DNA from: Escherichia coli
GTDB lineage: Bacteria > Pseudomonadota > Gammaproteobacteria > Enterobacterales > Enterobacteriaceae
Assembly: GCF_009931435.1 (NCBI RefSeq)
Contig: NZ_CP043414.1
DNA length: 64,000 nt
Direction: 5' to 3' (one strand)
Made by a program: the position numbers and the translations under genes. A model generated the notes under the pieces. It did no database searches, was not told the origin of the DNA, and worked only from the letters and a program-made list of their open reading frames with translations. Below, piece by piece: positions 1 to 58,561 of this stretch (position 1 is the first letter of the stretch; every line of letters starts with the position of its first letter).

Positions 1-1
1 C

Positions 2-433
2 AGTGAAGGCATCATTAGCGAACCGGTCGGACAAATGGAATGGGATTTTGTCGTCAGCCCACTCCACCCACTGGCAGCGAAGCGGCATCCATTAGAAAAC
101 AGTGAATTGCGTCATTATCCAGCGGTTTGTATCCGCGATACCTCCGTTAACTTCCCCCCGATGCAAGCCTGGCTGTTGGAAGGACAAAAACCGATTTTTG
201 TTCCTGACTTCGCTACGGCAATCGCCTTAATAGAACAAAACGTCGGTATTGGTTATATTCCACATCATCTGGCATTGCCGTTATTGAACAGCGGTAAATT
301 GCTTAAAAAGCCAATGCGCGAACATAAACACGCCACCAAGTTATTTCTTGCCGCTCGTTCCGATGGTATGGGCAAAGCCTGTCAGTGGTGCATAGAATAT
401 TTAAGAAATCCGCAATTAATTTTCTGTTCCTGA
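2..433 (+). CDS. LysR-family transcriptional regulator, C-terminal effector-binding part (5' end lies outside window)
   Basis: Frame is open from window start (SEGIISEPVGQ precedes the listed M at 35). Translation has LysR substrate-binding-domain character (GIGYIPHHLALPLL). Identity of the regulator not recognised. Confidence 0.55.
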   Translation, partial: SEGIISEPVGQMEWDFVVSPLHPLAAKRHPLENSELRHYPAVCIRDTSVNFPPMQAWLLEGQKPIFVPDFATAIALIEQNVGIGYIPHHLALPLLNSGKLLKKPMREHKHATKLFLAARSDGMGKACQWCIEYLRNPQLIFCS

Positions 434-526
434 AGATCCACATCATACCTGGCATACATAGCAAAATGGCTTCCGGTGTTGGAAGCCATTATTGTGCTGC
501 AATTTACAATGACTCGTTAATACTCA

Positions 527-2788
527 TCATCCCCGACGCAAATTCTGCGCCGCCTGCACCATGTTCGCCAGTGCCGCGCGGGTTTCTGGCCAGCCGCGCG
601 TTTTCAAACCACAGTCCGGGTTAACCCACAGACGCTCTGCCGGAATGCGTTTTGCCGCTTTCTTCAGCAGGGACTCAATCCATTCCACGCTCGGTACGTT
701 TGGCGAGTGAATGTCATAGACGCCTGGACCAATTTCATTTGGATAATCAAACTCTTCAAACGACTCCAGCAACTCCATGTCGGAACGCGAGGTTTCGATT
801 GTGATGACGTCAGCATCCAGCGCCGCAATCGAATCCATGATGTCGTTGAACTCGCAGTAACACATGTGAGTGTGGATTTGCGTGTCATCTTTCGCTACGG
901 CAGCGTTGATACGGAAAGCCTCCACGCCCCACTGGAGATAGGCATCCCAGTCGCTGCGACGCAGTGGTAAACCTTCGCGCAATGCCGGTTCGTCAATCTG
1001 AATGATGCCAATTCCAGCGGCTTCCAGATCGGCCACTTCATCACGCAGCGCCAGCGCAATTTGTTTGGCGATGGTTTCACGGCTGACATCTTCACGCGGG
1101 AACGACCAGCAGAGAATGGTCACCGGGCCAGTCAGCATCCCTTTCACCGGTTTGTCGGTCAGCGATTGCGCATACTTTGCCCACTCCACGGTAATCGGTG
1201 CCGGGCGGCTAACGTCACCAATGACAATCGGCGGTTTCACGCAGCGGGAACCGTAGCTCTGTACCCAACCGTTTTGTGTAAAGACAAAACCGTCGAGGTG
1301 CTCACCAAAGTATTCCACCATGTCATTACGCTCGGCCTCACCATGCACCAGCACATCCAGACCCAGACGTTCCTGCTCAACAATGGCCTGCTTGATATGT
1401 TCTGCAATGCCCGTACGATAGTTGTTGGCGTCGAGATTACCCTTTTTGAAATCCAGACGCAGGGTACGGATTTCTGTGGTTTGCGGGAAAGAGCCAATCG
1501 TGGTGGTCGGCCACGCGGGCAGTTTAAAACGCGCACGCTGGGCTTCAGCACGCACTTCATAGACATTCGCACGCTGACTGTCCTGGGCGGTGATCGCCGC
1601 CAGACGCTTTTCTACTGCCGGATTATGTACACGAGTAGAGTGACGACGCGCCTGAATCGGTGCACTCCACTCTGCCAGAGCTGCCGTGTCACCACTGTTC
1701 AGCGCATCGCGCAGCAATGCCAGTTCATGGCATTTTTGCAGGGCGAAGGCAAACCAGCTTTTCACTTCTGCATCAAGACGCGTTTCCACGCTCAGGTCGA
1801 TAGGGCTGTGCAGCAATGAGCAGGAAGATGCCACCCACAAATCACGTTTGCCGACAATGTCCTTAATTTGCGCATATTTCTCGGTAAGATCGGCGCGCCA
1901 GACGTTACGACCATTGATAAGACCAGCAGATAGCAGCCAGTCAGAAGGCAGACGCTTGTGCAGTTCAGCAACGTCATCTTTACCATGTACGAGATCGACA
2001 TGCAGACCCTGAACAGGCAGCGCAGTAATGGTGTCGAGGTTTGGCGTTACGCCTTCAAAATAGGTAGTCAGCAGCAGTTTCACCTGGCCCTGGAGCGCGT
2101 CGTAAGCGGGTTTATAGGCGTCCAGCCACGCCTGCGGCAGTTCCAGCACCAGCGCGGGTTCGTCGATCTGTACCCACTCAATGCCACGTTTTGCCAGTTC
2201 TGCCAACACTTGCTGATAAACCGGCAGAATGTCGCTCAGCAGGCTCAGGCGATCAAACTGTTCACCTTTCACTTTACCCAGCCACAGGTAGGTAACCGGT
2301 CCCAGCAGCACGGGCTTGACCTTGTGGCCCAGCGCCAGCGCCTCGTCCACTTCCTCCAGCAGCTGCGTCCAGGTCAGTTTGAACTGTTGGCCTTTAACGA
2401 ACTCCGGCACCATGTAGTGATAGTTGGTGTTAAACCATTTGGTCATTTCCGCTGCCGCCGCAGGTTCGCCAGTCGGTGCACGTCCACGACCAATACGGAA
2501 CAGAGTGTCGATATCTACCGAACCATCTTTGTTCTGGTGACGCGCCGGAACGTTACCCAGCAGCAGACTGGTGGTCAGTACATGATCGTACCAGGCAAAA
2601 TCGCCCACCGGCAGCAGGTCGATACCCGCTTGCTTTTGTTGATCCCAGTGACGAGCACGCAGTTCACGCCCTACCGCCAGCAGTTCTTCACGCGTGGAGT
2701 TCCCCGCCCAATAACTCTCTTGCGCTTTTTTCAGCTCGCGACGCAGGCCAACGCGAGGGAAACCGAGGGTGTGATTCAATATTGTCAT
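527..2788 (-). CDS. metE: cobalamin-independent methionine synthase
   Basis: 753 aa ORF, N-terminus [23 protein letters not shown] matches MetE; ATG at 2788, TGA stop at 527. Confidence 0.97.
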
Positions 2789-30547: not shown

Positions 30548-31744
30548 ATGCTAAAAGTGTTGTTGCTCTTTGTTTTGCTGATTGCGGGGATAGTGGTTGG
30601 CCCGATGATTGCCGGTCATCAGGGTTACGTATTGATTCAGACCGACAACTACAATATCGAAACCAGCGTCACTGGCCTGGCGATTATTTTGATTCTGGCG
30701 ATGGTAGTGCTGTTTGCCATTGAGTGGCTACTGCGGCGGATCTTCCGCACAGGCGCACACACCCGTGGGTGGTTTGTCGGACGTAAGCGTCGCCGTGCCC
30801 GTAAGCAGACCGAACAGGCGCTGCTGAAACTAGCGGAAGGCGATTATCAGCAAGTTGAAAAGCTGATGGCGAAAAATGCCGATCACGCTGAACAACCGGT
30901 GGTGAACTATCTGCTGGCTGCCGAAGCCGCGCAACAACGCGGTGATGAAGCACGCGCCAACCAACATCTGGAACGCGCAGCGGAGCTGGCCGGCAACGAC
31001 ACAATTCCGGTAGAAATCACCCGTGTACGTCTGCAACTGGCCCGTAATGAAAACCATGCAGCACGTCACGGCGTTGATAAGCTGCTGGAAGTTACGCCAC
31101 GCCATCCGGAAGTATTACGTCTGGCGGAACAGGCGTATATCCGCACTGGTGCATGGAGTTCGCTGCTGGATATCATCCCATCAATGGCAAAAGCCCACGT
31201 TGGCGATGAAGAGCATCGTGCAATGCTGGAACAACAGGCATGGATTGGCCTGATGGATCAGGCGCGTGCCGATAACGGTAGCGAAGGTTTGCGTAACTGG
31301 TGGAAAAACCAAAGCCGGAAAACGCGTCATCAGGTGGCGTTACAGGTGGCAATGGCGGAACATCTTATTGAATGTGACGATCATGATACTGCCCAGCAAA
31401 TTATCATCGACGGCCTGAAACGCCAGTATGACGATCGCCTGCTGCTGCCGATCCCGCGTCTGAAAACCAATAACCCGGAACAGCTGGAAAAAGTGCTGCG
31501 CCAACAGATCAAAAACGTGGGCGATCGCCCGTTGTTGTGGAGCACACTGGGTCAGTCGCTGATGAAGCACGGCGAATGGCAGGAAGCATCGCTCGCCTTC
31601 CGCGCGGCGCTGAAACAACGTCCGGACGCCTACGATTACGCATGGCTTGCCGACGCGCTGGACAGACTGCACAAGCCGGAAGAAGCCGCAGCGATGCGTC
31701 GCGATGGCTTGATGCTAACGTTGCAGAACAACCCGCCACAGTAG
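30548..31744 (+). CDS. hemY: HemY (TPR-containing inner membrane protein, heme biosynthesis-associated)
   Basis: 398 aa; two N-terminal TM segments then TPR-like repeats; starts 2 nt after the hemX stop. Confidence 0.93.
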   Translation: MLKVLLLFVLLIAGIVVGPMIAGHQGYVLIQTDNYNIETSVTGLAIILILAMVVLFAIEWLLRRIFRTGAHTRGWFVGRKRRRARKQTEQALLKLAEGDYQQVEKLMAKNADHAEQPVVNYLLAAEAAQQRGDEARANQHLERAAELAGNDTIPVEITRVRLQLARNENHAARHGVDKLLEVTPRHPEVLRLAEQAYIRTGAWSSLLDIIPSMAKAHVGDEEHRAMLEQQAWIGLMDQARADNGSEGLRNWWKNQSRKTRHQVALQVAMAEHLIECDDHDTAQQIIIDGLKRQYDDRLLLPIPRLKTNNPEQLEKVLRQQIKNVGDRPLLWSTLGQSLMKHGEWQEASLAFRAALKQRPDAYDYAWLADALDRLHKPEEAAAMRRDGLMLTLQNNPPQ

Positions 31745-31789
31745 CTCTTTCTCACCCGGAGGCAAGCACCTCCGGGGCCTTTCTGATAT

Positions 31790-31998
31790 ATAAAAAAACG
31801 CCTGCTCTTATTACGGAGCAGGCGTTAAAACAGGTCTGTATGACAACAAGTGGGTGCTTCACTCAACGTTGTGTCCATGGTGTCTGATGAGGCATAAGCG
31901 ACATCTGTCAGTGGACGATAAGCACCGTAAACGGCTCTGCGTCATTCCGGAGTTTATGAGGCACTAAGGCGAACATAAGAGATGGAATGAGCATCTAC
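31790..31998 (-). ncRNA. glmZ: GlmZ small regulatory RNA
   Basis: Minus strand reads GUAGAUGCUCAUUCCAUCUCUUAUGUUCGCCUUAGUGCC ... ending in hairpin AAGAGCAGGCGUUUUUUU, matching the remembered GlmZ sequence; located between hemY and aslA as in K-12. Confidence 0.8.
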
Positions 31999-35631: not shown

Positions 35632-35708
35632 TGGTCGGCGAGAGAGGATTCGAACCTCCGACCCACTGGTCCCAAACCAGTTGCGCTACCAAGCTGCGCT
35701 ACTCGCCG
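35632..35708 (-). tRNA. proM: tRNA-Pro (anticodon UGG)
   Basis: Reverse complement gives CGGCGAGUAGCGCAGCUUGG...GGUCGGAGGUUCGAAUCCUCUCUCGCCGACCA with cloverleaf and CCA end. Confidence 0.9.
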
Positions 35709-35750
35709 AAATACTGCTTTTTGAATTTTTAGTTCAATTCTTTAAAGTCG

Positions 35751-35837
35751 TGGTGCGAGGGGGGGGACTTGAACCCCCACGTCCGTAAGGACACTAACAC
35801 CTGAAGCTAGCGCGTCTACCAATTCCGCCACCTTCGC
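35751..35837 (-). tRNA. leuT: tRNA-Leu (anticodon CAG)
   Basis: 87-nt class II tRNA; reverse complement begins GCGAAGGUGGCGGAAUUGGUAGACGCG and ends ...CCUCGCACCA. Confidence 0.9.
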
Positions 35838-35857
35838 ATTGTCACAACTTCTAATAA

Positions 35858-35934
35858 TGGGGTGGCTAATGGGATTCGAACCCACGACAACTGGAATCAC
35901 AATCCAGGGCTCTACCAACTGAGCTATAGCCACC
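35858..35934 (-). tRNA. hisR: tRNA-His (anticodon GUG)
   Basis: Reverse complement GGUGGCUAUAGCUCAGUUGGUAGAGCCCUGGAUUGUGAUUCC...GCCACCCCA, with the extra 5' G typical of tRNA-His. Confidence 0.9.
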
Positions 35935-35991
35935 ACTACAAATCTTGTTACGCGGTATTACTACCACCGCAGCTCAAGCGCCGGGACTAAA

Positions 35992-36068
<77 letters not shown>

Positions 36069-37556: not shown

Positions 37557-37746
37557 AAATCCTCGTGTTGTGTTTGCATGCTTTCCGGTGTTACCGGTTA
37601 TCGTTATGGGTACATCGAGTGTTGCGAATGTTTTCGTAATTCAGGAGAAATGGCAAATAAAGCATTAAAAATTTGAATGCTTTGTGTAATAAAAAGACAG
37701 GCAGGCGACGAAGTGACCACTCCGTCGCTTTACAGAGAGAGGAAAA

Positions 37747-38487
37747 TCAGAGGTTGCCGGTGTAATGCCAGCGTAAATAACGCAGCAAACGAAGCTGACG
37801 CTTAATGCGGCTCGGCTGCGAAAGCAGGCGGTAGAGCCACTCCAGCCCCAGCGTTTGCCAGATTTTCGGTGCGCGTTTCACGTGACCGGTGAAAACATCG
37901 TAAGTCCCGCCAACGCCCATATACAGCGCATCCGGATGCACCAGACGGCAGTCGCGCATGAAGATCTCCTGCTTTGGCGATCCCATCGCAACGGTGACGA
38001 TTTGCGCTCCGCTGGCATGAATGCGTTCAAACAGCGCCTGACGCTGCTCGGGTTTAAAATAACCATCCTGACTGCCAACGATATTCACATTCCACTGATT
38101 GCGCAGTTTAGCTTCAGTTTGCGCCAGCACTTCAGGTTTACCGCCCACAAGAAATACCGGCGTCCCTTCTTTGCCTGCGCGCGCCATCAGCTCTTCCCAG
38201 AGATCGGCCCCGGCAACGCGGGAAACCTGCGCCTGCGGGTACTTTTTACGTACTGAACGTACAACGCTGATGCCATCAGCATATTTAAATTCGGCAGCAT
38301 TAATTAACTCCCTGACCTCGGCGTTATCTTCAATGGTCAGCATTTTTTCGGCATTAATGGCAACCAGCGTTCCTTGCTTAAGCTGCCCGTCAGCAAACAG
38401 ATAATCGAGGGCGTGCTGCATATCACGCCAACCGATTAACTGTAAGCCACGCAACGTATATGTCGGTGCCGTGGTATTGTTATTCAT
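37747..38487 (-). CDS. wecG: UDP-N-acetyl-D-mannosaminuronic acid transferase (ECA biosynthesis)
   Basis: 246 aa, last gene of the ECA cluster; WecB/TagA/CpsF glycosyltransferase-like sequence. Confidence 0.93.
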
Positions 38488-38489
38488 TG

Positions 38490-39842
38490 TTATCCTTCAA
38501 CCTGCGTCCGGAGCGATGATTTTGTACGTTTATGAATGAGTCCGGCGCTTTCAAAAAGCCAGTACAACAGTTTTGCGATCATCAGACATGCGCCGAAGAC
38601 CACGATAAAAAAGACCACACGTGAGACAAACGAATCCAGCCCTTCACGCGCCAGTACGATCATATTGAAGATCGCCCCGAAGCAGAAACTGTGCAATATC
38701 GCAGCCTTATAGCGATTAGTTTCGCGATTGCCCAGTTCATACAGCCAGTCGAACCATTTGATGATCAGTCCAACCACAATCGCCCCGAGCGGGATGAACA
38801 ACGCGCCGCCCATAACAACCAGTGAGCCTATAAGCGTAGGCGAGATCGCCAGCCCGGAGTGGTTATTCAGCACTTCCCAGGTAAAGTAGTTGGCGGAGTT
38901 CAGTACCATACTCGGGCGACCCGGCCACAGCCAGGAAGGGATAAAGACATAGAAATCGCGGACAATGGGAGCCAGGCCCTGGAAGTCGATGTTGTCGTAG
39001 TTCTGCAACAGCAATGCCAGATTCTCCCACGGCGAAAAGGTATCGCGGGTGAGATAGAGAAACGTATAGAACGCTTCATCGCCGCTCACATTCATTCCAT
39101 AGCGTTTTAGCGCCAGCCAGAACATGCCCACAATCCCCAGCACGCCCGCCGCCGCCAGCATCCACAACGAAATCCAGCCGCGAATAATGCCAATAAACAG
39201 GAAGATAGCAAATGCGATGATAATATTGGCGCGAGTGCCGCCGACAATCATGTAAGTCAGCAAGCCAAAGGCGACCGTGCTGGCGAGGAAAAACAGCCAC
39301 GCTTTGCTGTCCTGGCGCAGAAAGTAGACCACCAGCATCGCCGGGATGAAAAAGTAAAAGAAACGTTTTAACGCCACGCCGGAGACTTCACTGGAGAAGA
39401 TCTGACTGTAGGAGTTAAGACGGAACAGCAAAAAACCGTTGTGCATGAAGAAGATGCCGACGCTTACCAACGCAATGCCCATCAGGATCACCCACGTGAG
39501 ATTGGTCTCCACGCGGTTCATGGTAAACAGCGGACGGCGCGGTACATCAGCAACGCGTTTGCGTAGGCGGGTTTTGTAGGTGACATAGTAAACCGCGTAG
39601 AAGCAGCCCGCAGAAAGCAACGCCTGCAACAAGATTTCTGGCGGCGCAACACCAACATCAAAGCGAAATACCAGCACGCTGGTCAGCGGGAAGCCGAAGA
39701 AAAAGGTGAGCAAAAACAGCAATGAAAAGAAGACATTGAAGTTAAAGCGCACACGGCGAAACTCAAACCAGGTCAGCGTGGCAATAAACAGCGTGCAGAG
39801 CAGCCAGACAACAAACAGGCCACTGAATTGCAGCAGACTCAT
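38490..39842 (-). CDS. wzyE: ECA polysaccharide polymerase
   Basis: 450 aa polytopic membrane protein at the conserved position between wecG and wecF. Confidence 0.93.
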
Positions 39843-40918
39843 GCGACCTCCCCGGCGGCAATCGCCAACGCCCGCTGCCAGCCTTGTAGAAAGTTAGGGC
39901 TAAAGAAGGCAATGGTGTTTTTATCCACCGACGCCAGCTGGCGCTGTGCTTCACGCACAATATCCTCGTTGAGATCGTCGGTAGTAAACAGCACCGGCAA
40001 ATGCTGTTCCGTCATATCCTGCCAGAACGGATTTTCCCGGTTAAGCACACAAGGAATGCCCGCCTGAATCAGCAAGCACAGCGTACCAATGCCCTGCTGG
40101 CGGGCAAAAATAAAGTAACCGAGATCGCACTGACGAAGTAGCGCCAGATAGGCATCAAATTCCAGTTTTTCGCTCAGAACTTGCAGATTTTCTTCGCTGA
40201 ATAACGCCAGCCCCGCCTGGCGAACTTCATTGATATATGCATCGTTATTGGGTGGATATCCCATCGGCACCACGACTTTTACCGTATTGCCAAATTGCTG
40301 ATGAACGGCGCGTAAGGCGGCGACATGCTCATTGCTGCGGTCACCGGAGTTCCCCACCAGAATGGTCATTTTCCCTTCACGTTGGCGATCGTTCGCCATC
40401 GTATTGAGAGAAGGGTCCATCCGCGTCGGGAAGTACAGCAGTTCGCCCCGCACCTTTGGATGCGTTTTGGCAAAAAAACTCAAATCACCGCGGGTGGCAA
40501 ATACACAGCCGACTCGCTTTTGCGCCAGACGGCGCAGCGGATAAAAAAGCTTATATCTCAAGCCACTGGAAAGCTCATACAGGTCTGCCCCCCAGATATG
40601 CCAGTAAAACTGGCTGGGCTTAATGCCACCACTCAGCAGAGCTAGCCACAGTTTGGGATTGAACTGACCGTGGAAGAAAAATCGCTGCTGACGGTTAGCT
40701 TTTGCTTTCGCGATGACCGCTTCCGCCAGCGATTTTTTCCCAGGGAAAAATTGCACAGAAAGCGCCGGACAGCTATCACTTAAGCCGTCGTCCTTGCCAA
40801 CAACCATAAACTCGCGCGCGTGCTCGCTCGTCGCGGCCAGCGCGTCGTTGAAAAACCGCAGAACGGTTCGGTTATGGTGAGGGATATCCGATCCCAGTAC
40901 GTGAATCAGTACAGTCAT
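39839..40918 (-). CDS. wecF: TDP-N-acetylfucosamine:lipid II N-acetylfucosaminyltransferase
   Basis: 359 aa; 4-nt overlaps with both wzxE and wzyE. Confidence 0.93.
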
Positions 40919-42165
40919 GCCCGCCTACGCCAGAGTAAAAATACGCCACAACAAAGAGAAAAATAGACGATATAGGTTGCCATGTAGGCCTGCGCCGCGC
41001 CCAGTGCGCCATGCGCAGGGATTAGCCAGTGGGCAAATACCATCAATAAAGTGAACTGGCTGACTTCCGCCAGAATATAAAACCGCAGTGACGCTTTGGC
41101 GATCACCAGATAACCAAAGACATAAGCGCCCACTTTTAATACATCGCCCACCAACTGCCAGGCAAAGAGATCGCGCATAGCGGTAAATTTATTCGACAAC
41201 AGCAGCCAGATAGCAAAATCACGCAGCAACCAGACGGTAAAACTCGCCACAGCTACCGCCGGTAAGACGAATTTCAACGATTTAACCACTTCCCGGGTGA
41301 TATCGCGCTTTTCCGTTAGCCGCGACAACGTGGGCAGTAAATATACGCTGAACGATGCCGTAATAAATTGCAGGTAGGCATCGGAAATACTGCTCACCCC
41401 TTGCCAGATACCCACTTCATCCCAGCTATAATGCGCCGCCAACAGTTTACGCATCATAATGTACGCAACGGGCAAGGTCACCGACGTAATCAACGCCATG
41501 AGCGTAAATTTGCTCAACTGCCCTGCCAGGCCGTTATCCCAACTGGGTTTCAGATAGCTTAACGGGATGGCACCACGTTTGATCAACATGATGACGGCAG
41601 GAATCACCACCAACGCCGGAATCAGCGCCAGCCCCAGCAATGCCCCTTCATAACCACCCAAACGGTAACTGACATAATAAGCGATAACGCCAATCAAGCT
41701 GCCGACAATCAGCGATAACGCATTACCAGCGGCATCGCGAAAGCCTTTCATCAACGCCAGTAACAGGTTGCCCCAGGCGATCCCCATTTGCACCAGCGCC
41801 ACTAAACGCACCAGCCCCACATAGTCGGTATTACCAAACAATCCCTGGCTAATTGGCGCTGCCGCCAGCACAAAAACCAGCGCCATCAGCGTAGAGAAAC
41901 CAAGCACCATCGCTGATGAAGTGCCGACCACGCGGCGCAGCTGCTGCGGATTATCATGGTACTGGGCAACGTATTTGGTTACGCCATTAAAGATGCCCGC
42001 CCCGGCAAGCACGCCGAGCACGGTAATCAACTGGCGGAAATTTGCCGCCAGCCCAAGCCCCGCCGGACCAAATGACACCGCCAGCAACTTACCGACCAGT
42101 AACCCTGCACCAATCTTGACCAGTGTACTGGCCGCCGTCCATAAGGACGCTTTTGCCAACGACAT
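40915..42165 (-). CDS. wzxE: ECA lipid III flippase
   Basis: 416 aa polytopic membrane protein (Wzx-type). Confidence 0.93.
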
Positions 42166-42166
42166 A

Positions 42167-43297
42167 TCAGGAGAAGTAATTCAACAAGGTCGCAATTACC
42201 GTACGCTGATTGACGGGCGACAGGTTGTAGAACAGCGGCAGGCGCAGCAGGCGCTCGCTCTCTTTGGTGGTGTAGCGATCTTCACCGTGGAACTCACCAA
42301 AGCGTTCCCCCGCAGGGCAACCGTGCAGCGGAATGTAATGGAACACCGCCATGATTTCCGCTTCTTTCAGAAAGTTAATCAACGCGCTCCGGTCATCAAT
42401 ATCCCGCAGTTTAATGTAGAACATATGCGCGTTCTGCACGCAGCCATCGGGAATCGACGGCAGCTCGATACGCCCGGCTTTCGCCAGAGGTGCTAACGCA
42501 TCGTAGTAGTTTTGCCACAGCGCCAGACGTTGCTGATTGATACGATCCGCTGCTTCCAGTTGCGCCCACAGGTACGCAGCTTGCAGATCGGACATCAAAT
42601 AGCTGGAGCCAATATCGCGCCAGGTATATTTATCGACCTGACCACGGAAGAACTGGCTGCGGTTAGTCCCTTTTTCACGGATGATCTCGGCTCGTTCGAT
42701 TAACGCTTTATCGTTAATCAGCGTCGCGCCGCCTTCACCGCCCGCCGTGTAGTTTTTGGTTTCATGGAAGCTAAAGCAGCCAATATGACCAATGGTTCCC
42801 AGCGCACGCCCTTTATAAGTGGACATCACGCCCTGAGCGGCATCTTCCACCACAAACAGATTATGCTTTTTCGCCAACGCCATAATGGTGTCCATTTCGC
42901 AGGCCACACCCGCGTAATGAACCGGCACGATAACGCGCGTTTTGTCGGTGATCGCCGCTTCAATCAACGTTTCGTCGATGTTCATGGTGTCCGGGCGAAC
43001 ATCCACAAAGACGATTTTCGCGCCACGCAGCACAAAGGCATTGGCGGTGGAGACAAAGGTGTAGCTCGGCATGATCACTTCATCGCCAGGCTGGATATCG
43101 AGCAGCAGCGCCGCCATCTCCAGCGAAGCGGTGCAGGATGGTGTCAGTAACACTTTGGCGCTGCCAAAACGTTGCTCCAGCCATTGCTGGCAGCGACGGG
43201 TAAAACCGCCATCGCCACACAGTTTGCCGCTACCCATTGCCGACTGCATATAGTCGAGTTCGGTTCCCACCACCGGCGGTGCGTTAAATGGAATCAT
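42167..43297 (-). CDS. wecE: dTDP-4-amino-4,6-dideoxygalactose transaminase (PLP-dependent)
   Basis: 376 aa DegT/DnrJ/EryC1-type aminotransferase; MIPFNAPPVVGTELDYMQSAM. Confidence 0.95.
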   Translation of the reverse strand: MIPFNAPPVVGTELDYMQSAMGSGKLCGDGGFTRRCQQWLEQRFGSAKVLLTPSCTASLEMAALLLDIQPGDEVIMPSYTFVSTANAFVLRGAKIVFVDVRPDTMNIDETLIEAAITDKTRVIVPVHYAGVACEMDTIMALAKKHNLFVVEDAAQGVMSTYKGRALGTIGHIGCFSFHETKNYTAGGEGGATLINDKALIERAEIIREKGTNRSQFFRGQVDKYTWRDIGSSYLMSDLQAAYLWAQLEAADRINQQRLALWQNYYDALAPLAKAGRIELPSIPDGCVQNAHMFYIKLRDIDDRSALINFLKEAEIMAVFHYIPLHGCPAGERFGEFHGEDRYTTKESERLLRLPLFYNLSPVNQRTVIATLLNYFS

Positions 43298-43301
43298 GTG
43301 A

Positions 43302-43976
43302 TCACCTGTATAACCAGTACGCGGTGCTTTCTACATTCGCACCACTTTGTATGTATCGTTTAAGCGCGGCGGTGTTGCCCATCTGGGTCGCCACCCGCAA
43401 AGTTGTTTTACCGCGAGCATACGCCCAGTTTAGCGCTGTTTGCATCAGCTCAGCACCTGCACCGCGTCCAGCCAGCAGGCCAATTCGCGCATCTGTCGCA
43501 TTGAGTTCCCGTAAAGAGACATAGCCGCGAATATCGCCGGACGCCGAACGTAAAATGAGGCATTGATGATCAAAGGTGCCGCGCACGGCATTTTCAATCC
43601 ACTGCGCATAAAAGCGACCGCTGGCGTCAGGCGCATACCATGGCGCACGAAAACGGCTTTGCGCAAATGCGGCGCTGGCTAACTGACGTAATGCGGGAAT
43701 ATCTGTCTCTTGTGCCACTTCTGCGCCGCTATCACTGACATTGTTCACGGGTAGCGCCAAATCAACTTCACCTTCAACCAGGCAGAATCCCAGCTGTTGC
43801 AAGGCATCCAGCTCAACAGTATTTGATGCAGTAATTTTGGCCTGTACTCGTGACCACGTCGCTAAAGCGTCTGGCGTCAGGAGTGGCGCATCAGGAGTGA
43901 GATGCACGATAGCGCTGTTAACGCCAAAGAAGGCATTTTCCCAGGCTAGTGGTTCAATACTGGCGCGGACGGGCAC
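43302..43976 (-). CDS. wecD: dTDP-fucosamine acetyltransferase
   Basis: 224 aa GNAT-like sequence; its start overlaps the rffH 3' end. Confidence 0.9.
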
Positions 43977-44835
43977 GGAGTAACTCCAGCAGATATTGGC
44001 CGTAGCCAGTTTTCGCTAATGAACTGGCAGCACGCTTCACACCTTCGTCATCGAGCCAGCCGTTACGCCAGGCAATCTCTTCCAGGCAGGCAATCTTAAA
44101 GCCCTGGCGTTTTTCCACCGTCTGTACAAAGGTACTGGCTTCAATCAGGCTGTCGTGTGTGCCGGTGTCCAACCAGGCAAATCCGCGCCCGAGCAGTTCA
44201 ACGGTCAGGTTGCCTGCCTCGAGGTACATCTGGTTGATGGAGGTAATCTCCAGTTCACCACGCTCCGACGGCTTCACCTGCTTTGCGTACTCCACAACTT
44301 TACTGTCGTAGAAATAAAGCCCGGTCACCGCCCAGTTTGATTTTGGCTGTTTTGGCTTTTCTTCCAGAGAGATAGCGCGGAAATTGTCGTCAAACTCCAC
44401 GACGCCAAAGCGTTCTGGATCCATTACCTGATAGCCAAATACCGTCGCCCCTTGCGTGCGCGCCGCAACATGACGCAGCTTCGGACTGAAGCCCTGGCCG
44501 AAGAAGATGTTATCGCCCAGCACCAGACAAGATGGTTCACCATTAAGGAAGGTTTCACCGATGATAAATGCCTGCGCAAGACCGTCCGGGCTGGGCTGTT
44601 CGGCATATTCCAGCTGGATACCGAACTCACTACCATCGCCCAGCAGGCGCTGGAAATAACCTTTATCTTCCGGCGTGGTGATGATGAGAATTTCGCGGAT
44701 ACCGGCCAGCATCAGCACCGACAGCGGATAGTAAATCATTGGCTTATCGTAAATCGGCAACAATTGCTTCGATACGCCGCGCGTAATCGGATGCAATCGG
44801 GTGCCGGAACCGCCCGCCAGGATAATACCTTTCAT
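43954..44835 (-). CDS. rffH: glucose-1-phosphate thymidylyltransferase
   Basis: 293 aa, [39 protein letters not shown] (RmlA-type). Confidence 0.95.
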
Positions 44836-44853
44836 GTTTGCCTCCGCTGAGAA

Positions 44854-45921
44854 TTAGCCGTTCAGACCTAAACGCTCACCCTGATAGCTGCCGTCCTGCA
44901 CCTGCTTCCACCAGCTTTCATTAGCCAGATACCACTGCACTGTTTTACGCATTCCACTTTCAAAGGTTTCCTGCGGCAGCCAGCCAAGTTCACGGGCAAT
45001 TTTCGAAGCATCAATGGCATAGCGTAGGTCATGCCCTGGACGGTCAGCGACAAAGGTAATCAGATCGCGATAGTGCGCCACACCGTACGGTTTATTCGGG
45101 GCCAGTTCTTCCAGCAGCTCGCAGATGGTTTCCACAACCTCGAGATTCTTACGCTCGTTGTGACCACCAATATTATAGGTTTCACCGACTTTCCCGGTGG
45201 TCACCACGCAATACAGCGCGCGGGCATGATCTTCAACATATAACCAGTCACGGATTTGCTGCCCATTGCCATATACCGGCAGCGGTTTACCCGCCAGCGC
45301 GTTGAGGATCATCAGCGGGATCAGTTTTTCCGGAAAGTGGTAAGGACCGTAGTTATTAGAGCAGTTGGTGATTAACGTCGGCAGGCCGTAGGTCCGCAAC
45401 CAGGCGCGCACCAGATGGTCGCTGCTTGCTTTTGAAGCAGAATAAGGGCTGCTCGGCGAATACGGCGTGGTTTCGGTGAAGAAATCATCTGTGGAATGCA
45501 GGTCACCGTATACTTCGTCGGTGGAGATATGATGAAAACGGAACGCCGATTTTTTGTCTTCTGCCAGCGTATTCCAGTAAGCCCGCGCCGCTTCAAGCAG
45601 TGTATAAGTCCCGACAATGTTGGTTTCGATAAACGCTGCCGGGCCGTCAATAGAACGGTCAACATGGCTTTCAGCTGCCAGATGCATGACGCAGTCTGGC
45701 TGATGTTCTGTGAAAACACGCGCCAGTTCTGCCCGATCGCAGATATCAACTTTCTCAAAGGCAAAGCGATCGCTTTGCGCAACCGGTGCCAGCGACATCA
45801 GGTTTCCGGCGTAGGTCAGCTTATCGACCACCACCACCGCATCGCTCGTTTCGTTGATGATATAACGCACCAGCGCCGAGCCAATAAACCCGGCACCGCC
45901 TGTTATCAGAATCTTTCTCAT
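44854..45921 (-). CDS. rffG: dTDP-glucose 4,6-dehydratase
   Basis: 355 aa, [22 protein letters not shown] Rossmann motif and YxxxK (RmlB-type). Confidence 0.95.
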
Positions 45922-47183
45922 TAGCGCCAGACTCCTTTGGCATCGACGACATACTGCTGATGGACGTTGTCGCCATTGATAACTTTGAACTGACTATGAT
46001 CGACCAACATCACCAGCACATCTGCCGTTGCCAGCGCCTCGTCAAGCTGCGCCAGAGTACAAAGCCCATTCAGTTTGTTCGGCAACTGGTGAATGTTAGG
46101 CTCAACAACCAGCGTTTCGCCGCTGTGCCACTGAGCGATCAATTCAGCGATTTCCATCGCCGGACTTTCGCGCAGGTCATCAATATTCGGTTTAAACGCC
46201 AGACCAAAACAGGCAATTTTCAGCTCACTGGCGCGTTTATCGGTAGCGGCCAGGCAGTCGGCAACCGCCGCTTTGACCTGATCAATCACCCAGAACGGTT
46301 TGTGATCGTTCACTTCACGCGCGGTACGGATAAGCCGCGCCTGCTGCGGATTCTGTGCCACGATAAACCACGGATCAACAGCGATGCAGTGGCCGCCCAC
46401 GCCTGGGCCAGGCTGAAGAATATTGACGCGTGGGTGGCGATTCGCCAGGCGAATCAGTTCCCAGACGTTAATCCCCTGATCGGCACAAATCAGCGACAAT
46501 TCATTAGCAAAAGCGATATTCACATCGCGGAAGCTGTTTTCGGTGAGCTTACACATTTCCGCCGTTCGCGAGTTAGTGACGACACACTCACCTTCGAGGA
46601 AAATTTTGTACAGTTCGCTGGCACGGGCCGAACAAACCGGCGTCATACCACCAATCACGCGATCGTTTTTAATCAGCTCGACCATAACCTGGCCCGGTAA
46701 CACGCGTTCCGGGCAGTAAGCAATGTTGACGTCCGCCTGCTCGCCCACCTGCTGTGGGAAAGTCAGGTCCGGACGCATCTCTGCTAACCATTCTGCCATC
46801 TTCTCGGTTGACCCCACCGGCGAGGTGGATTCAAGGATCACCAGCGCGCCTTTTTTCAGCACTGGCGCAATGGAGCGAGCAGCCGATTCAACGTAAGCCA
46901 TATCAGGCTCATGATCGCCTTTAAACGGCGTGGGTACAGCAATCAGCCAGGCATCCGCTTCAACCGGCGTCGTGCTCGCTCGTAAAAAACCGCCTTCTAC
47001 GGCAGTTTTTACTACGCTCGCCAAATCAGGCTCGACGATATGGATTTCGCCACGATTGATGGTATCAACCGCGTGTTGGTTGATATCAACACCAATCACC
47101 TGTTTTTGCCGGGAGGCAAACGCTGCCGCCGTTGGCAGTCCAATGTAACCCAGTCCAATGACAGAAATGGTCGCAAAACTCAT
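45921..47183 (-). CDS. wecC: UDP-N-acetyl-D-mannosamine dehydrogenase
   Basis: 420 aa, [23 protein letters not shown] (UDP-sugar dehydrogenase NAD-binding motif). Confidence 0.95.
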
Positions 47184-48310
47184 AGTGATATCCGATTATT
47201 TTTTAACGCTTCCAGAATGCGAGAGCATGCCTGACCATCACCATACGGGTTATGGGCGCGGCTCATGGTTTGATATTCGTTTTCGTCTTTTAAAAGACGC
47301 GTCACTTCCTCGACGATTCGCTGCTTATCCGTGCCGACCAGACGTACCGTACCCGCCTTCACTGCTTCCGGACGTTCAGTGGTTTCACGCATCACCAGCA
47401 CTGGTTTCCCCAGCGAAGGCGCTTCCTCCTGAATGCCACCTGAATCGGTCAAAATCAGCCAGGCGTGGTTCATCAGCCAGACAAACGGTAAATACTCCTG
47501 GGGATCGATCAGAATGACATTTTTCACGTGCCCCAGAATGCGATTGACCGGCTCTCTGACATTCGGGTTGAGATGCACCGGATAGACAATCTGAATGTCC
47601 TGGTGAGTGGTGGCGATGTCTGCCAGCGCATGGCAGATTTCTTCAAAGCCACGACCAAAACTCTCACGTCTGTGACCGGTCACCAGAATCATTTTTTTAT
47701 CAGGGTCGATAAACGGATAATTTGCCGCCAGTTCTGAACGCAGCGTATCGCTGCTCATCACCTGGTCACGCACCCATAACAGTGCATCAATAACGGTATT
47801 ACCGGTAATGAAGATTCGGCTGTCAGCAACGTTTTCACGCAGCAAGTTTTGCCGGGACGTTTCGGTTGGAGAGAAGTGATACATCGCCAGATGCCCGGTC
47901 AATGTACGATTTGCCTCTTCCGGCCACGGCGAATAGAGATCGCCCGTGCGCAGACCAGCCTCAACGTGACCAACAGGAATACGCTGATAAAACGCCGCCA
48001 GACTGGTTGCCAGCGTCGTCGTCGTATCGCCGTGAACCAGCACGACGTCTGGTTTGAACTCGGCAAGAATAGGTTTTAGCCCTTCCAGAATCCGACAGGT
48101 TATCTCTGTCAGACCCTGTCCTGGCTGCATTATGTTGAGATCGTAGTCAGGTACAATGGAAAAGAGTTTCAGCACCTGATCGAGCATCTCCCGATGCTGC
48201 GCAGTGACGCAAACTTTAGCCTCAAAAAAAGGATCTTTTGCCAACGCATGCACCAACGGCGCCATCTTGATGGCTTCCGGGCGCGTACCAAATACAGTCA
48301 GTACTTTCAC
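47180..48310 (-). CDS. wecB: UDP-N-acetylglucosamine 2-epimerase
   Basis: Start trimmed to GTG at 48310 ([20 protein letters not shown]), 376 aa as recalled for K-12; the longer ATG-started ORF adds 14 residues. Confidence 0.9.
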
Positions 48311-48365
48311 ATCGATTCTCTTCGAATAAGCGGCGAGCGCCTTTGCGCTCACCGCAGCAGTGTTG

Positions 48366-49412
48366 CTATTTCGAGCAACGGCGGGTTAATGCGACACCAG
48401 CCCCGATCAGCCCCCCGACAATGCCCCACATAATCATCAGGAAGGCACGACGTGGGCTATCGCGTTTTACCGGTTCTTCCGGCGTACGCAAATAGCGATA
48501 GGTCTGAAAACGCGGATCCAGGGTTGGACCAACATTCAGGGTGTTTAACATGGCCCGATTCTGATCATAGTCGAGATCAAAGGCCGGACCGACGGCCTGT
48601 AAATTTTCCAGTCGCGCCTGGAGCATTGGACGCCCAAGCAGGAACATTTCTGAATCAGGTAGTTCCTCGGCAGGTACATCTGTCGCACTGCGCGAAATAT
48701 TATGCTGCTCAGCAATTTTCAGCGCCTGTTCAATGCTGTTCATCCGGCGGTCGTAGATGGCTTTCGCCACTTCTTCCTGACGCTTCACCTGAGCTTTCAT
48801 CTGGATGGTACGCGCCGCCCATGCGCCTTTCAGCTCATCATTCAGATGGCTGGCAGCTCGTTGGCTGGCAAACGCAACATACTGACGTAACAGGTTATTA
48901 GCGTCAGGCGCGGTTTCGGCAATCAGCTTAACGCTATCATTGACCGCACGCGTGAAGTCACCGGGAATAAACACGATGTTGTTAATCATTTCATCCAGCA
49001 ACGCCGCATCGGCTTTGCTGTTCCCGACCATCCGCTGTTTATAATAGTCTGTCTGCAACCAGAAATCGCGGCGGGTATCCCACGAGGCCAGTTGCATAAC
49101 AAACTCTTTATAGGCTTCATCCATGACCGATGGTTGGTCGGCAGAAGCCATGTTCGAACGGACGTCCAGGTTACGCAAAAATTGCTGCTGCGAGTAGTAT
49201 CCTCCCAGCATATTCACTGTTGGACGATCGGTAATCGCCGTCGAGCTCCACTCCTGACGAGCAAAAAAAGTATACGCCAGCGCGATTAACGCAAACGCCA
49301 GCCCCATGCCAATAATCCACAGCTTCCCAGCCCACAAGGTACGAAACAACCCACGAATATCCAGTTCATTTTCAGCGTCTTCGGCCGGTTTCCCAGGCAT
49401 TGGTTGTGTCAT
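48366..49412 (-). CDS. wzzE: ECA polysaccharide chain-length modulation protein
   Basis: Start at the second Met ([14 protein letters not shown]), 348 aa; Wzz-type with TM helices at both ends. Confidence 0.93.
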
Positions 49413-49423
49413 CACATCCTCAT

Positions 49424-50527
49424 TTATTTGGTTAAATTGGGGCTGCCACCACGATTTCTACGCAGTCTGCGTTTTACGCGCTTAATAAAGCGAGCAACTT
49501 TCCAGGCACGCTTAATGCAATATCCATAGAGGAAGAATGCTAGCAAAAAGAGCACCAGCATGACCCATTCCGGGACAAAATGAGAGTATTCTGCCAGCAC
49601 GCCAATTGAGGCGAGCAGTGCTGCGGCAAGGGTAATCAGCACAAACGCCTGGCGGGAAGTAAACCCGGCACGCATGATCAAATGGTGAATATGCTGACGG
49701 TCAGGAGAGAATGGGCTCATGCCTTTACGCAGGCGACGGTACATAATTGCCACCATATCCATTAGCGGAATGGCGATAATCCATAATGCAGTAACCGGGC
49801 TTATTGGGTGCGTTTTTCCCTGAGTCGTTTCGAGCAGGATCCAGATAACGGTAAAACCAATCAGCGTACTGCCCGCATCACCCATAAAGACTTTGTAGCG
49901 GCGACCCAGGATACCAAGGTTGAGCATGATATAGGGCAGGATGGCGGCGATCATCGCAAAGCACCAGATAGCGAGGCTGGTTTGCCCGTCGAACCACAAA
50001 ATCATACCGATTGCTGCAAACGAGACGCAGGACAACCCGCCCAGCAAGCCATCAATGCCATCAACCATGTTGAAAGCATTAATTGCCGCCCAGACGGCAA
50101 ATAGCGTCAGGAAGTAGCCAAACGGTCCGAGCACCATCTCCCAGGAGCCAAAGATATAACCCAGGCTACTGAGATAAAGTTTGCCGAACACCATCATAAC
50201 AATGCCAACAGCGGCCTGTATGGTGGCACGGATTTTTACGCTGATATCAAAACGGTCATCCAGCGCACCGATGAACACAAGCACACCGGCACAAGCAAGA
50301 TAGAGAGATGCATGCGGAATATAATAATCGACAATTCCGAACGTGAAGCAAATCCCTGCGTAAACCGAAATACCCCCAACGAGAGGTATCAATCCCTGGT
50401 GACGTTTGCGGAAGTTAGGTTTATCCACTAAACCGACTTTTTTTGCTACCTTTCGGGCAAAAAACAGAAACAGTGTCGTGAATAAAAAAATACTGATGAG
50501 ATCAGTACTCACTGTCAGTAAATTCAC
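49424..50527 (-). CDS. wecA: UDP-GlcNAc:undecaprenyl-phosphate GlcNAc-1-phosphate transferase
   Basis: 367 aa polytopic membrane protein, MraY/WecA family; first gene of the ECA cluster, downstream of rho. Confidence 0.95.
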   Translation of the reverse strand: MNLLTVSTDLISIFLFTTLFLFFARKVAKKVGLVDKPNFRKRHQGLIPLVGGISVYAGICFTFGIVDYYIPHASLYLACAGVLVFIGALDDRFDISVKIRATIQAAVGIVMMVFGKLYLSSLGYIFGSWEMVLGPFGYFLTLFAVWAAINAFNMVDGIDGLLGGLSCVSFAAIGMILWFDGQTSLAIWCFAMIAAILPYIMLNLGILGRRYKVFMGDAGSTLIGFTVIWILLETTQGKTHPISPVTALWIIAIPLMDMVAIMYRRLRKGMSPFSPDRQHIHHLIMRAGFTSRQAFVLITLAAALLASIGVLAEYSHFVPEWVMLVLFLLAFFLYGYCIKRAWKVARFIKRVKRRLRRNRGGSPNLTK

Positions 50528-50725
50528 AATGCATGCTCTCAGAGAAAATTATTAGCAGAAGTATAACCACGAAGACCTTTATTCAGAAGGGAAAGTCCGT
50601 TCCGAACCCACCAGCCCTGTGCAAAAATTAATCATTCGATATGCAAATTGCATAACACACGAGCAAAACCCAGGAATTTTCCTAACATTGCCAGTGCGGC
50701 AATAAGATTACAGATATAAAAGCAA

Positions 50726-50749
50726 AACGCCACGTAAACACGTGGCGTT
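50726..50749 (-). terminator. hairpin terminator downstream of rho
   Basis: aacgccacgt-aaac-acgtggcgtt perfect inverted repeat flanked by A/T runs on both sides, about 20 bp 3' of the rho stop. Confidence 0.5.
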
Positions 50750-50766
50750 TTTGGCATAAGACAAAT

Positions 50767-52352: not shown

Positions 52353-52682
52353 TTACGCCAGGTTAGCGTCGAGGAACTCTTTCAACTGACCTTTAGACAG
52401 TGCGCCCACTTTGGTTGCCGCCACTTCACCGTTTTTGAACAGCAGCAGAGTCGGGATACCACGGATGCCATATTTCGGCGCAGTGCCAGGGTTTTGATCG
52501 ATGTTCAGTTTTGCAACGGTCAGTTTGCCCTGATATTCGTCAGCGATTTCATCCAGAATCGGGGCGATCATTTTGCACGGACCGCACCACTCTGCCCAGA
52601 AATCAACGAGGATCGCCCCGTCCGCTTTGAGTACATCCGTGTCAAAACTGTCGTCAGTCAGGTGAATAATTTTATCGCTCAT
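52353..52682 (-). CDS. trxA: thioredoxin 1
   Basis: Start trimmed to ATG at 52682 ([39 protein letters not shown]), 109 aa with WCGPC active site. Confidence 0.97.
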
Positions 52683-52812
52683 ATATAACTCCACAGGAAT
52701 AAGCCTGGCGTGTTGGTTTCGTTGTTGGTGTAACATTAACCAACTAAAGGTTGACTTTATTTCACCGGATACGCTTTCGTAAAGCAATAGTAAGCTGATA
52801 TTCTACCACACT

Positions 52813-57983: not shown

Positions 57984-58433
57984 GTGGCGATTAATTTCAG
58001 CCCTAAGGTTGGTGAAATACTGGAATGCAACTTTGGTAACTATTCTGTTAGCCAGAATGGACAGTTCAGCACGACGTATTACGATGGCCGCATTCCACCT
58101 GAGATGATAAAAAATAGGTTGGTTGTCGTGCTCAACGGAAAAATTAATGGCAACGCATGTATCGTCATTCCATTATCAACCACTCGCGACCATGACAAGT
58201 TAAATCGTGGAATGCATGTTGAAATAGCCAGTAATGTTATCAATGACCTGCAATTCTTTGATCAGCAGATACGTTGGGCTAAAGCCGACCTGGTACAACA
58301 AGTCAGTCGAAACCGATTAAACAGAGCAAGGACTTATCGGGGGTATCTTAATCAATGTTTGCCACATGAGTTGGTTGCAGACATACAGAGGGCAGTCATC
58401 AAGTCAATCAATGCCATATCGCTCATAAATTGA
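57984..58433 (+). CDS. MazF/PemK-fold toxin-like protein (probably the K-12 yifN locus equivalent)
   Basis: GTG at 57984 with aaggag SD 10 nt upstream. Translation aligns by eye to MazF/Kid motif order: KVGEILECNF (GDLIWVDF), KNRLVVVLN (RPAVVLS), ACIVIPLSTT (MCLCVPCTT), C-terminal LPHELVADIQRAVIKSINAISLI (APEELQLIKAKINVLIG). No antitoxin-sized ORF adjacent. Confidence 0.7.
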   Translation: MAINFSPKVGEILECNFGNYSVSQNGQFSTTYYDGRIPPEMIKNRLVVVLNGKINGNACIVIPLSTTRDHDKLNRGMHVEIASNVINDLQFFDQQIRWAKADLVQQVSRNRLNRARTYRGYLNQCLPHELVADIQRAVIKSINAISLIN

Positions 58434-58561
58434 CAATAAAATCACCATCCCCGATAATGACTCTGTAGCCCATAGAGGCCCTAAGTTTTCTCCCCCTTGA
58501 GGGACCTGCGAAGCCCGGATTTTCCGGGCTTTTGCCATATATGTCCCCCCTCCCTGACTGA

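Follow-up and report, generated by a model that had tools for sequence, protein, structure and literature searches.

We analysed a 64,000-nucleotide (nt) window of contig NZ_CP043414.1 (RefSeq assembly GCF_009931435.1, labelled Escherichia coli) for the enterobacterial common antigen (ECA) gene cluster that it carries at positions 37747-50527. Twelve back-to-back minus-strand open reading frames (ORFs) occupy this interval exactly. They are the contiguous genes wecA-wzzE-wecB-wecC-rffG-rffH-wecD-wecE-wzxE-wecF-wzyE-wecG, in this order. An earlier reading made from the letters of the DNA (henceforth the sequence-only reading) had proposed a complete 12-gene ECA cluster here, with no mention of its minus-strand orientation; the ORF layout, the protein family matches and gene lengths equal to those of E. 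coli K-12 all bear the proposal out. Gene starts were set by the RefSeq/K-12 annotation, which places wzzE at ATG 49412 (348 amino acids) and wecB at GTG 48310 (376 amino acids). The maximal ORFs of these two genes start farther upstream, by 3 nt (one codon; 349 amino acids) for wzzE and by 42 nt (14 codons; 390 amino acids) for wecB. The features of the locus are given below in the direction of the operon. For each gene we report the score of the protein family model against its curated cut-off, in bits, and the number of amino acid differences from K-12.

50724-50751, minus strand: rho intrinsic terminator, the upstream operon boundary; 12-base-pair (bp) stem then a T-run; fold z = -4.4; invariant relative to K-12.
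50528-50723, minus strand: wec leader and promoter region, from the rho terminator to the wecA GTG; colinear with K-12.
49424-50527, minus strand: wecA (rfe), UDP-N-acetylglucosamine (UDP-GlcNAc):undecaprenyl-phosphate GlcNAc-1-phosphate transferase; 367 amino acids, GTG start; TIGR02380, 575 against 326; 0 differences.
48366-49412, minus strand: wzzE, ECA chain-length co-polymerase; 348 amino acids; NF008645, 692 against 332; 2 differences.
48330-48355, minus strand: intercistronic stem-loop in the wzzE-wecB spacer, GCGGTGAGCGC-AAAG-GCGCTCGCCGC; recognized by fold and covariation.
47180-48310, minus strand: wecB (rffE), UDP-GlcNAc 2-epimerase; 376 amino acids, GTG start; TIGR00236, 619 against 210; 4 differences.
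45921-47183, minus strand: wecC (rffD), UDP-N-acetylmannosamine (UDP-ManNAc) dehydrogenase; 420 amino acids; NF008286, 859 against 459; 3 differences.
44854-45921, minus strand: rffG, dTDP-glucose 4,6-dehydratase; 355 amino acids; NF007582, 827 against 698; 9 differences.
43954-44835, minus strand: rffH, glucose-1-phosphate thymidylyltransferase; 293 amino acids; TIGR01207, 535 against 361; 1 difference.
43302-43976, minus strand: wecD (rffC), dTDP-fucosamine acetyltransferase; 224 amino acids, GTG start; NF008212, 355 against 219; 13 differences.
42167-43297, minus strand: wecE (rffA), dTDP-4-keto-6-deoxyglucose transaminase; 376 amino acids; TIGR02379, 737 against 435; 1 difference.
40915-42165, minus strand: wzxE, lipid III(ECA) flippase; 416 amino acids; NF011679, 806 against 325; 6 differences.
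39839-40918, minus strand: wecF (rffT), 4-acetamido-4,6-dideoxygalactose (Fuc4NAc) transferase; 359 amino acids; NF002752, 849 against 754; 11 differences.
38490-39842, minus strand: wzyE, ECA polymerase; 450 amino acids; NF002820, 867 against 510; 2 differences.
37747-38487, minus strand: wecG (rffM), N-acetylmannosaminuronic acid (ManNAcA) transferase; 246 amino acids; NF002980, 445 against 323; 1 difference.
37689-37728, minus strand: terminator-like hairpin and T-run, the probable operon end, 19 nt past the wecG stop; 10-bp stem then CUGCCUGUCUUUUUAUU.

All 12 products match specific NCBIfam equivalog or subfamily models end to end and above the curated cut-offs, the smallest margin in the cluster being that of WecF (849 against 754 bits). 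RffH exceeds the cut-off of the general RmlA model TIGR01207 but not that of the PRK15480 RfbA model (444 against 588). The cluster is 12,781 nt long both in the window and in K-12, and the two align without gaps at 96.4% identity. With K-12 starts, every gene agrees with its K-12 MG1655 counterpart (b3784-b3794) in length, start codon and frame. We extended the alignment to 13,210 nt, comprising the cluster and its flanking intergenic regions, and found zero gaps relative to eight E. coli genomes (K-12, the closest relative and a diverse set of six others). The sequence-only reading had named frameshifts or internal stops on per-gene alignment as the findings that would count against it. These alignments with K-12 reveal no internal stop in any of the 12 genes and no frameshift or insertion across them. 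Its statement that insertion sequences (ISs) and pseudogenes are absent likewise held, as the scan of the cluster detected no repeats or IS-like elements and no repetitive extragenic palindromic (REP) elements of note. Rfam gave zero matches at gathering score inside the cluster. Amino acid differences from K-12 range from 0 (WecA) to 13 (WecD), with 1-13 in the proteins other than WecA, and the Nei-Gojobori ratio of nonsynonymous to synonymous divergence (dN/dS) relative to K-12 is 0.00-0.15 per gene, wecD having the cluster maximum of 0.15. WecA in K-12 also primes O-antigen synthesis, and the WecA protein of the window is identical to it in amino acid sequence.

The chromosomal context and the distribution of the cluster are those of a widespread locus. 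The cluster is preceded by rho and followed by thrP (yifK) and the tRNA genes argX-hisR-leuT-proM, which ARAGORN places at 35632-36068 as tRNA Arg-His-Leu-Pro. A megablast search with the cluster found a match in 5,425 of 5,426 complete E. coli genomes, and in 5,424 at least 80% of the cluster is covered in one place; the features beneath the matches are annotated as ECA genes. In two annotated records, the closest relative (2020CK-00188, 99.0% identity) and K-12 MG1655, the order of the 12 genes and the neighbours are identical to those in the window. Because 5,424 of the 5,426 complete E. coli genomes have it, an intact ECA operon in Escherichia is an already known, ordinary, default state. 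As a separate observation, the match in E. coli FXCREC035 (NZ_CM135826.1) breaks within wzzE beside an annotated hypothetical protein, a rare case of an apparently interrupted cluster.

We conclude, with a probability of about 97%, that this region is the chromosomal wec/rff operon for ECA, in the 12-gene form of Escherichia and Salmonella, intact and under purifying selection. The gene content, intactness, family membership, synteny and purifying selection are demonstrated, and nothing contradicts the identification as an ECA cluster. Three results set limits to this conclusion. WecD differs from its K-12 counterpart at 13 residues and WecF at 11, with family scores still far above the cut-off; no match of at least 9/12 to the sigma-70 consensus was detected in the wec leader on the operon strand, so that no promoter is pinpointed; and the hairpin after wecG barely exceeds shuffled sequence in fold stability (z = -1.4). 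The substitutions in WecD and WecF, together with the divergence of the lineage (96.4% identity to E. coli), could also be taken to mean that the genes are intact yet the pathway is impaired in this lineage, through missense changes in such proteins or through defects outside the window. We regard this as very improbable. That no gene exceeds a dN/dS of 0.15 points to continued purifying selection, and most of the substitutions are common to the closest relative, which differs by 0-5 amino acids per protein. Moreover, WecD is the least conserved ECA protein across genera (41-93% identity), which makes variation in WecD normal, and the Hidden Markov Model scores are well above the cut-offs.

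The biochemistry of the pathway is established. WecA transfers GlcNAc-1-phosphate onto undecaprenyl phosphate to form lipid I; UDP-ManNAcA, made by WecB and WecC, is the donor from which WecG forms lipid II; and dTDP-Fuc4NAc, made by RffH, RffG, WecE and WecD, is the donor from which WecF forms lipid III (PMC12212991). Lipid III is flipped to the periplasmic face by WzxE, and the repeat units are polymerised by WzyE under the chain-length control of WzzE (PMC12212991). The cluster of the window would follow this scheme from WecA priming through polymerisation by WzyE and WzzE, with no departure from it, and the strain should make ECA. The practical value of this result is annotation; since the genes and the pathway are textbook knowledge, it has little weight as a discovery.

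We assessed the organization of the operon from its gene junctions. Five junctions overlap: 4-nt ATGA overlaps join wecB/wecC, wzxE/wecF and wecF/wzyE (the several 4-nt overlaps noted in the sequence-only reading), wecC/rffG overlap by 1 nt and rffH/wecD by 23 nt. Three more are separated by gaps of at most 4 nt (wecD/wecE 4, wecE/wzxE 1 and wzyE/wecG 2 nt). Because the junctions are tight or overlapping, translational coupling is likely at most gene pairs. The same reading had claimed a single translationally coupled operon, which is plausible and agrees with the K-12 literature. Eight of the 11 junctions fit this claim and three do not, namely the spacers of 11 nt (wecA/wzzE), 18 nt (rffG/rffH) and 55 nt (wzzE/wecB); in these, purine-rich Shine-Dalgarno-like motifs can be read by eye upstream of the next start. 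Transcription would start in the wecA promoter region, just past the rho terminator, and end at the hairpin after wecG. No strong terminator was detected within the cluster, where the scan gives only weak hairpins inside ORFs; the rho terminator is the only strong one. From the sequence of this cluster we infer its expression, its co-transcription, the coupling of its genes and the production of ECA.

The ends of the operon resemble those of K-12. The 239-nt rho-wecA spacer is colinear with that of K-12 and 95% identical (12 mismatches). In K-12, the wecA promoter region drives the 12-gene operon and contains four transcription start sites and sites for NsrR and PdeL (PMC8669472; review, PMC12212991). 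A review from 2025 names no more than four influences that regulate ECA biosynthesis, with PdeL as the only experimentally confirmed transcriptional regulator (PMC12212991). Sigma-70 promoter-like matches are at or below shuffle expectation. At the other end, the hairpin at 37689-37728 is kept in K-12 with one compensating G-U/G-C change and is the probable operon end.

Additional motifs were considered in and around the leader. A perfect 6-1-6 palindrome, ATGCAA-T-TTGCAT (50642-50654, minus strand), lies in the wec leader and is invariant relative to K-12 and to the closest relative; it could be the NsrR site that was placed in the promoter region (PMC8669472). The ops element (GGCGGTAG) was not found in the wec leader (50528-50766), and an RfaH/JUMPStart-ops regulated operon was rejected on account of this missing octamer. 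The window has six matches to GGCGGTAG against 1.3 expected. The only one of them on the operon strand, at 41253-41260 in wzxE, arises from Pro-Ala-Val-Ala codons and was dismissed as a chance match because it is absent from all seven E. coli compared. A genomic SELEX (gSELEX) paper suggests a sigma-54 promoter near the wecA/wzzE junction (PMC8743547). We found this unsupported, as the motif matches are at chance level (39 against 45 expected).

The 55-nt wzzE-wecB spacer (48311-48365) is the only sizeable spacer in the operon and is 100% identical to that of K-12. Its stem-loop (48330-48355) has an 11-bp stem, and the fold reaches -29.6 kcal/mol for 73 nt (z = -4.1). Across 60 aligned Enterobacteriaceae loci, the sequence of the stem varies between genera while pairing persists, and 9 of 10 pairs show double compensatory changes. 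Paired cells amount to 89%, compared to 33-50% in controls in which the partner was slid by 1-3 columns, and none of 500 shuffles reached the observed covariation. The stem-loop is followed by a near-invariant AAGAGAATCGAT-GTG, which is the ribosome-binding and start region of wecB. No Rfam covariance model matched the stem-loop at E-values up to 10 in 48050-48700, and we found no description of a wzzE-wecB hairpin or of internal transcription units among the papers that we searched.

A strong stem between genes could be an intrinsic terminator, for which the stem is present and the U-tract is missing in the window: the tail after the stem is TTATTCG (UUAUUCG in RNA), and the terminator scan does not call it. 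A T-tract does follow the stem in E. albertii (TTTTT) and in Buttiauxella and loci with the Buttiauxella sequence, e.g., Cedecea colo (L036) and L045 (TTTTTT). Citrobacter and Enterobacter have no T-tract at all after the stem. Because the T-tract is absent in the window, Citrobacter and Enterobacter, the stem-loop does not look like a canonical terminator here. It may be an undescribed cis-acting RNA element, an attenuator or a 3'-end stabiliser that would set the ratio of wecA-wzzE expression to that of the downstream genes for enzymes, flippase and polymerase. Our best guess, which we consider possible rather than probable, is that it shifts expression in favour of wecA-wzzE over the genes downstream, through leaky attenuation or stabilisation of the 3' end. 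Such an effect would agree with the WzzE:WzyE stoichiometry, which is reported as 8:1 (PMC12212991), and, if real, would help to account for an excess of WzzE over WzyE.

The same evidence raises the question of whether the operon is one uniformly coupled unit. Alternatively, the stem-loop may split wecA-wzzE from wecB-wecG, either by terminating transcription leakily or by forming a 3' end that shields the upstream part of the mRNA from exonucleases, and leave WzzE in excess over downstream proteins such as WzyE. The position of the stem-loop in the sole large spacer, the strength of the fold, the compensatory changes with their shuffled and slid controls, the T-tracts of E. albertii and Buttiauxella-type loci and the reported 8:1 ratio (PMC12212991) all favour such a split. 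However, the TTATTCG tail of the window is not called by a simple terminator scan, Citrobacter and Enterobacter lack the T-tract, and no paper describing the stem-loop was found. We consider this division a serious possibility that falls somewhat short of even odds; it would refine, not replace, the explanation of the locus as a single ECA operon. The stem-loop is a small but well-supported addition and offers a cheap hypothesis for post-transcriptional tuning inside the operon.

Divergence along the cluster is a mosaic that ranges from 0.003 to 0.10. The longest mismatch-free run against K-12 is 501 nt (48114-48614) and takes in the spacer with the adjoining 3' end of wzzE and 5' end of wecB; chance alone would yield about 6e-6 runs of this kind. 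Of 5,424 E. coli genomes, 5,422 match the window at 99% identity or more over this interval, whereas the adjoining 501 nt are 95-99% identical in 5,392 E. coli genomes. Nucleotide diversity (pi) across seven E. coli genomes is 0.005 in the interval compared to a mean of 0.016. A low patch at the same place was also observed in the comparison with E. albertii, but not clearly in those with Salmonella or Enterobacter. A second patch of low divergence, with a 247-nt mismatch-free run against K-12 (49321-49567), lies at the wecA/wzzE junction. Central wzzE (49266-48667), between both patches, is highly divergent (divergence d = 0.06-0.075), and the rffH/wecD border (44066-43667) reaches d = 0.10.

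One explanation for the identity at 48114-48614 is a functional element at the nucleotide level, such as an internal promoter or an RNA structure for wecB, instead of recombination. The improbable length of the run, the near-uniform conservation in E. coli relative to the neighbouring 501 nt and the low pi speak for such an element, and WecB also acts outside ECA, in the receptor glycan of phage N4 (PMC8669472). Several results argue against it. Conservation of the interval is not raised in comparisons with Salmonella or Enterobacter and only slightly with Citrobacter, no promoter-like site was found in 48114-48614, and divergence is mosaic across the whole cluster, as expected from recombination. 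In addition, the second low patch at the wecA/wzzE junction points to ordinary junction constraint. We therefore consider an embedded element unlikely. The mosaic instead suggests that Escherichia lineages have recombined and that gene junctions are under ordinary constraint; we assign a contribution to the latter because the second low patch sits at such a junction.

The divergence also bears on the identity of the host. The ECA cluster of the window is 96.2-96.4% identical to those of seven E. coli genomes, which are 97.6-99.9% identical among themselves. For window positions 1-25000, taking the best place per record, identity is at most 99%, with 95-99% in 4,006 records and 90-95% in 1,559; the closest strains over this interval are 98.3-98.7% identical. 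Only a handful of genomes labelled E. coli in RefSeq lie at approximately 98.5-99% (2020CK-00188, N96, MFDS1022581 and MFDS1019527). Because of the 96.2-96.4% identity to the E. coli panel and the ceiling of 99% over 1-25000, the host is, by these sequence comparisons, a divergent Escherichia lineage that is labelled E. coli in RefSeq.

Comparison with the closest relatives disclosed further differences in the window. Beside glmZ (Rfam GlmZ, 31792-31998), at 31743-31790, the closest relative (L089 6858-7496) has approximately 590 nt more than the window; the extra sequence includes an annotated 591-nt hypothetical coding sequence between aslA/glmZ and hemY that is missing from the window. Window positions 1-530 have no match in the closest relatives, where ysgA comes after metE, and match E. 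coli strains, e.g., APEC E19035, with extra genes annotated as tkt and ptsG under the 1-25000 match. A PemK/MazF-family toxin gene at approximately 57985-58434 (plus strand), between ppiC and rep, was placed by colinearity with the closest relative (L090 8212-8661). It is present in four of six panel genomes (L083, L084, L086 and L088) and absent from the other two (L085 and L087). Upstream of trxA, 52653-52752 (minus strand) matches the Rfam TrxA 5' untranslated region thermometer (78.8 bits, gathering score 58). Within the cluster, a 246-amino-acid plus-strand ORF antisense to wecC (45960-46700) was rejected as a by-product of codon usage. It is open in E. coli, Salmonella and C. braakii, and is most likely spurious because it is interrupted by a stop in E. 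albertii, E. cloacae, Klebsiella and Kluyvera.

We compared the cluster to related systems, beginning with the K-12 MG1655 wec/rff operon (b3784-b3794 and b4481), whose genes are named wecA-wzzE-wecB-wecC-rffG-rffH-rffC-wecE-wzxE-wecF-wzyE-rffM. The two operons agree in genes, order, strand logic, gene lengths, starts, junctions, total length (12,781 nt) and neighbours (rho on one side, thrP-argX-hisR-leuT-proM on the other). They differ by 3.6% nucleotide divergence, 53 amino acid substitutions in total and one stop codon (wecC, TAA against TGA), with zero structural differences.

To place the 12-gene form among other genera, we scanned one genome per GTDB species for WecB, which returned at least 80 loci (L003-L082); the counts of architectures refer to the matches listed. 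Among the 77 listed loci that span wecC-wecD, 39 have both rffG and rffH, 37 lack both, and one, in Kluyvera genomosp. 1 (L049), has rffG without a full-length rffH match. Gene order is invariant among the loci listed: all 37 Enterobacterales loci with the full set of 12 genes and all 30 complete 10-gene loci are colinear. The 12-gene form is found in the window and in Escherichia, Salmonella, Proteus, Photorhabdus and Serratia. The 10-gene clusters of Enterobacter, Buttiauxella, Kosakonia, Erwinia and some Citrobacter share the order wecA-wzzE-wecB-wecC and wecD-wecE-wzxE-wecF-wzyE-wecG with the window but lack rffG and rffH, so that wecC abuts wecD. RffG and RffH are reported to be partly redundant with RmlB and RmlA (PMC12212991). 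Those 10-gene clusters that belong to the Enterobacteriaceae have the wzzE-wecB stem-loop, as does the window. Finally, the Wzx/Wzy-dependent O-antigen (rfb) clusters resemble ECA in pathway logic, with a WecA-primed repeat unit linked to undecaprenyl pyrophosphate and with a flippase, a polymerase and a co-polymerase of the Wzx, Wzy and Wzz types, respectively (PMC12212991). Whereas the O-antigen clusters are under RfaH/JUMPStart-ops control, the ECA cluster is invariant and occupies a fixed locus beside rho, with a leader that lacks the ops octamer.

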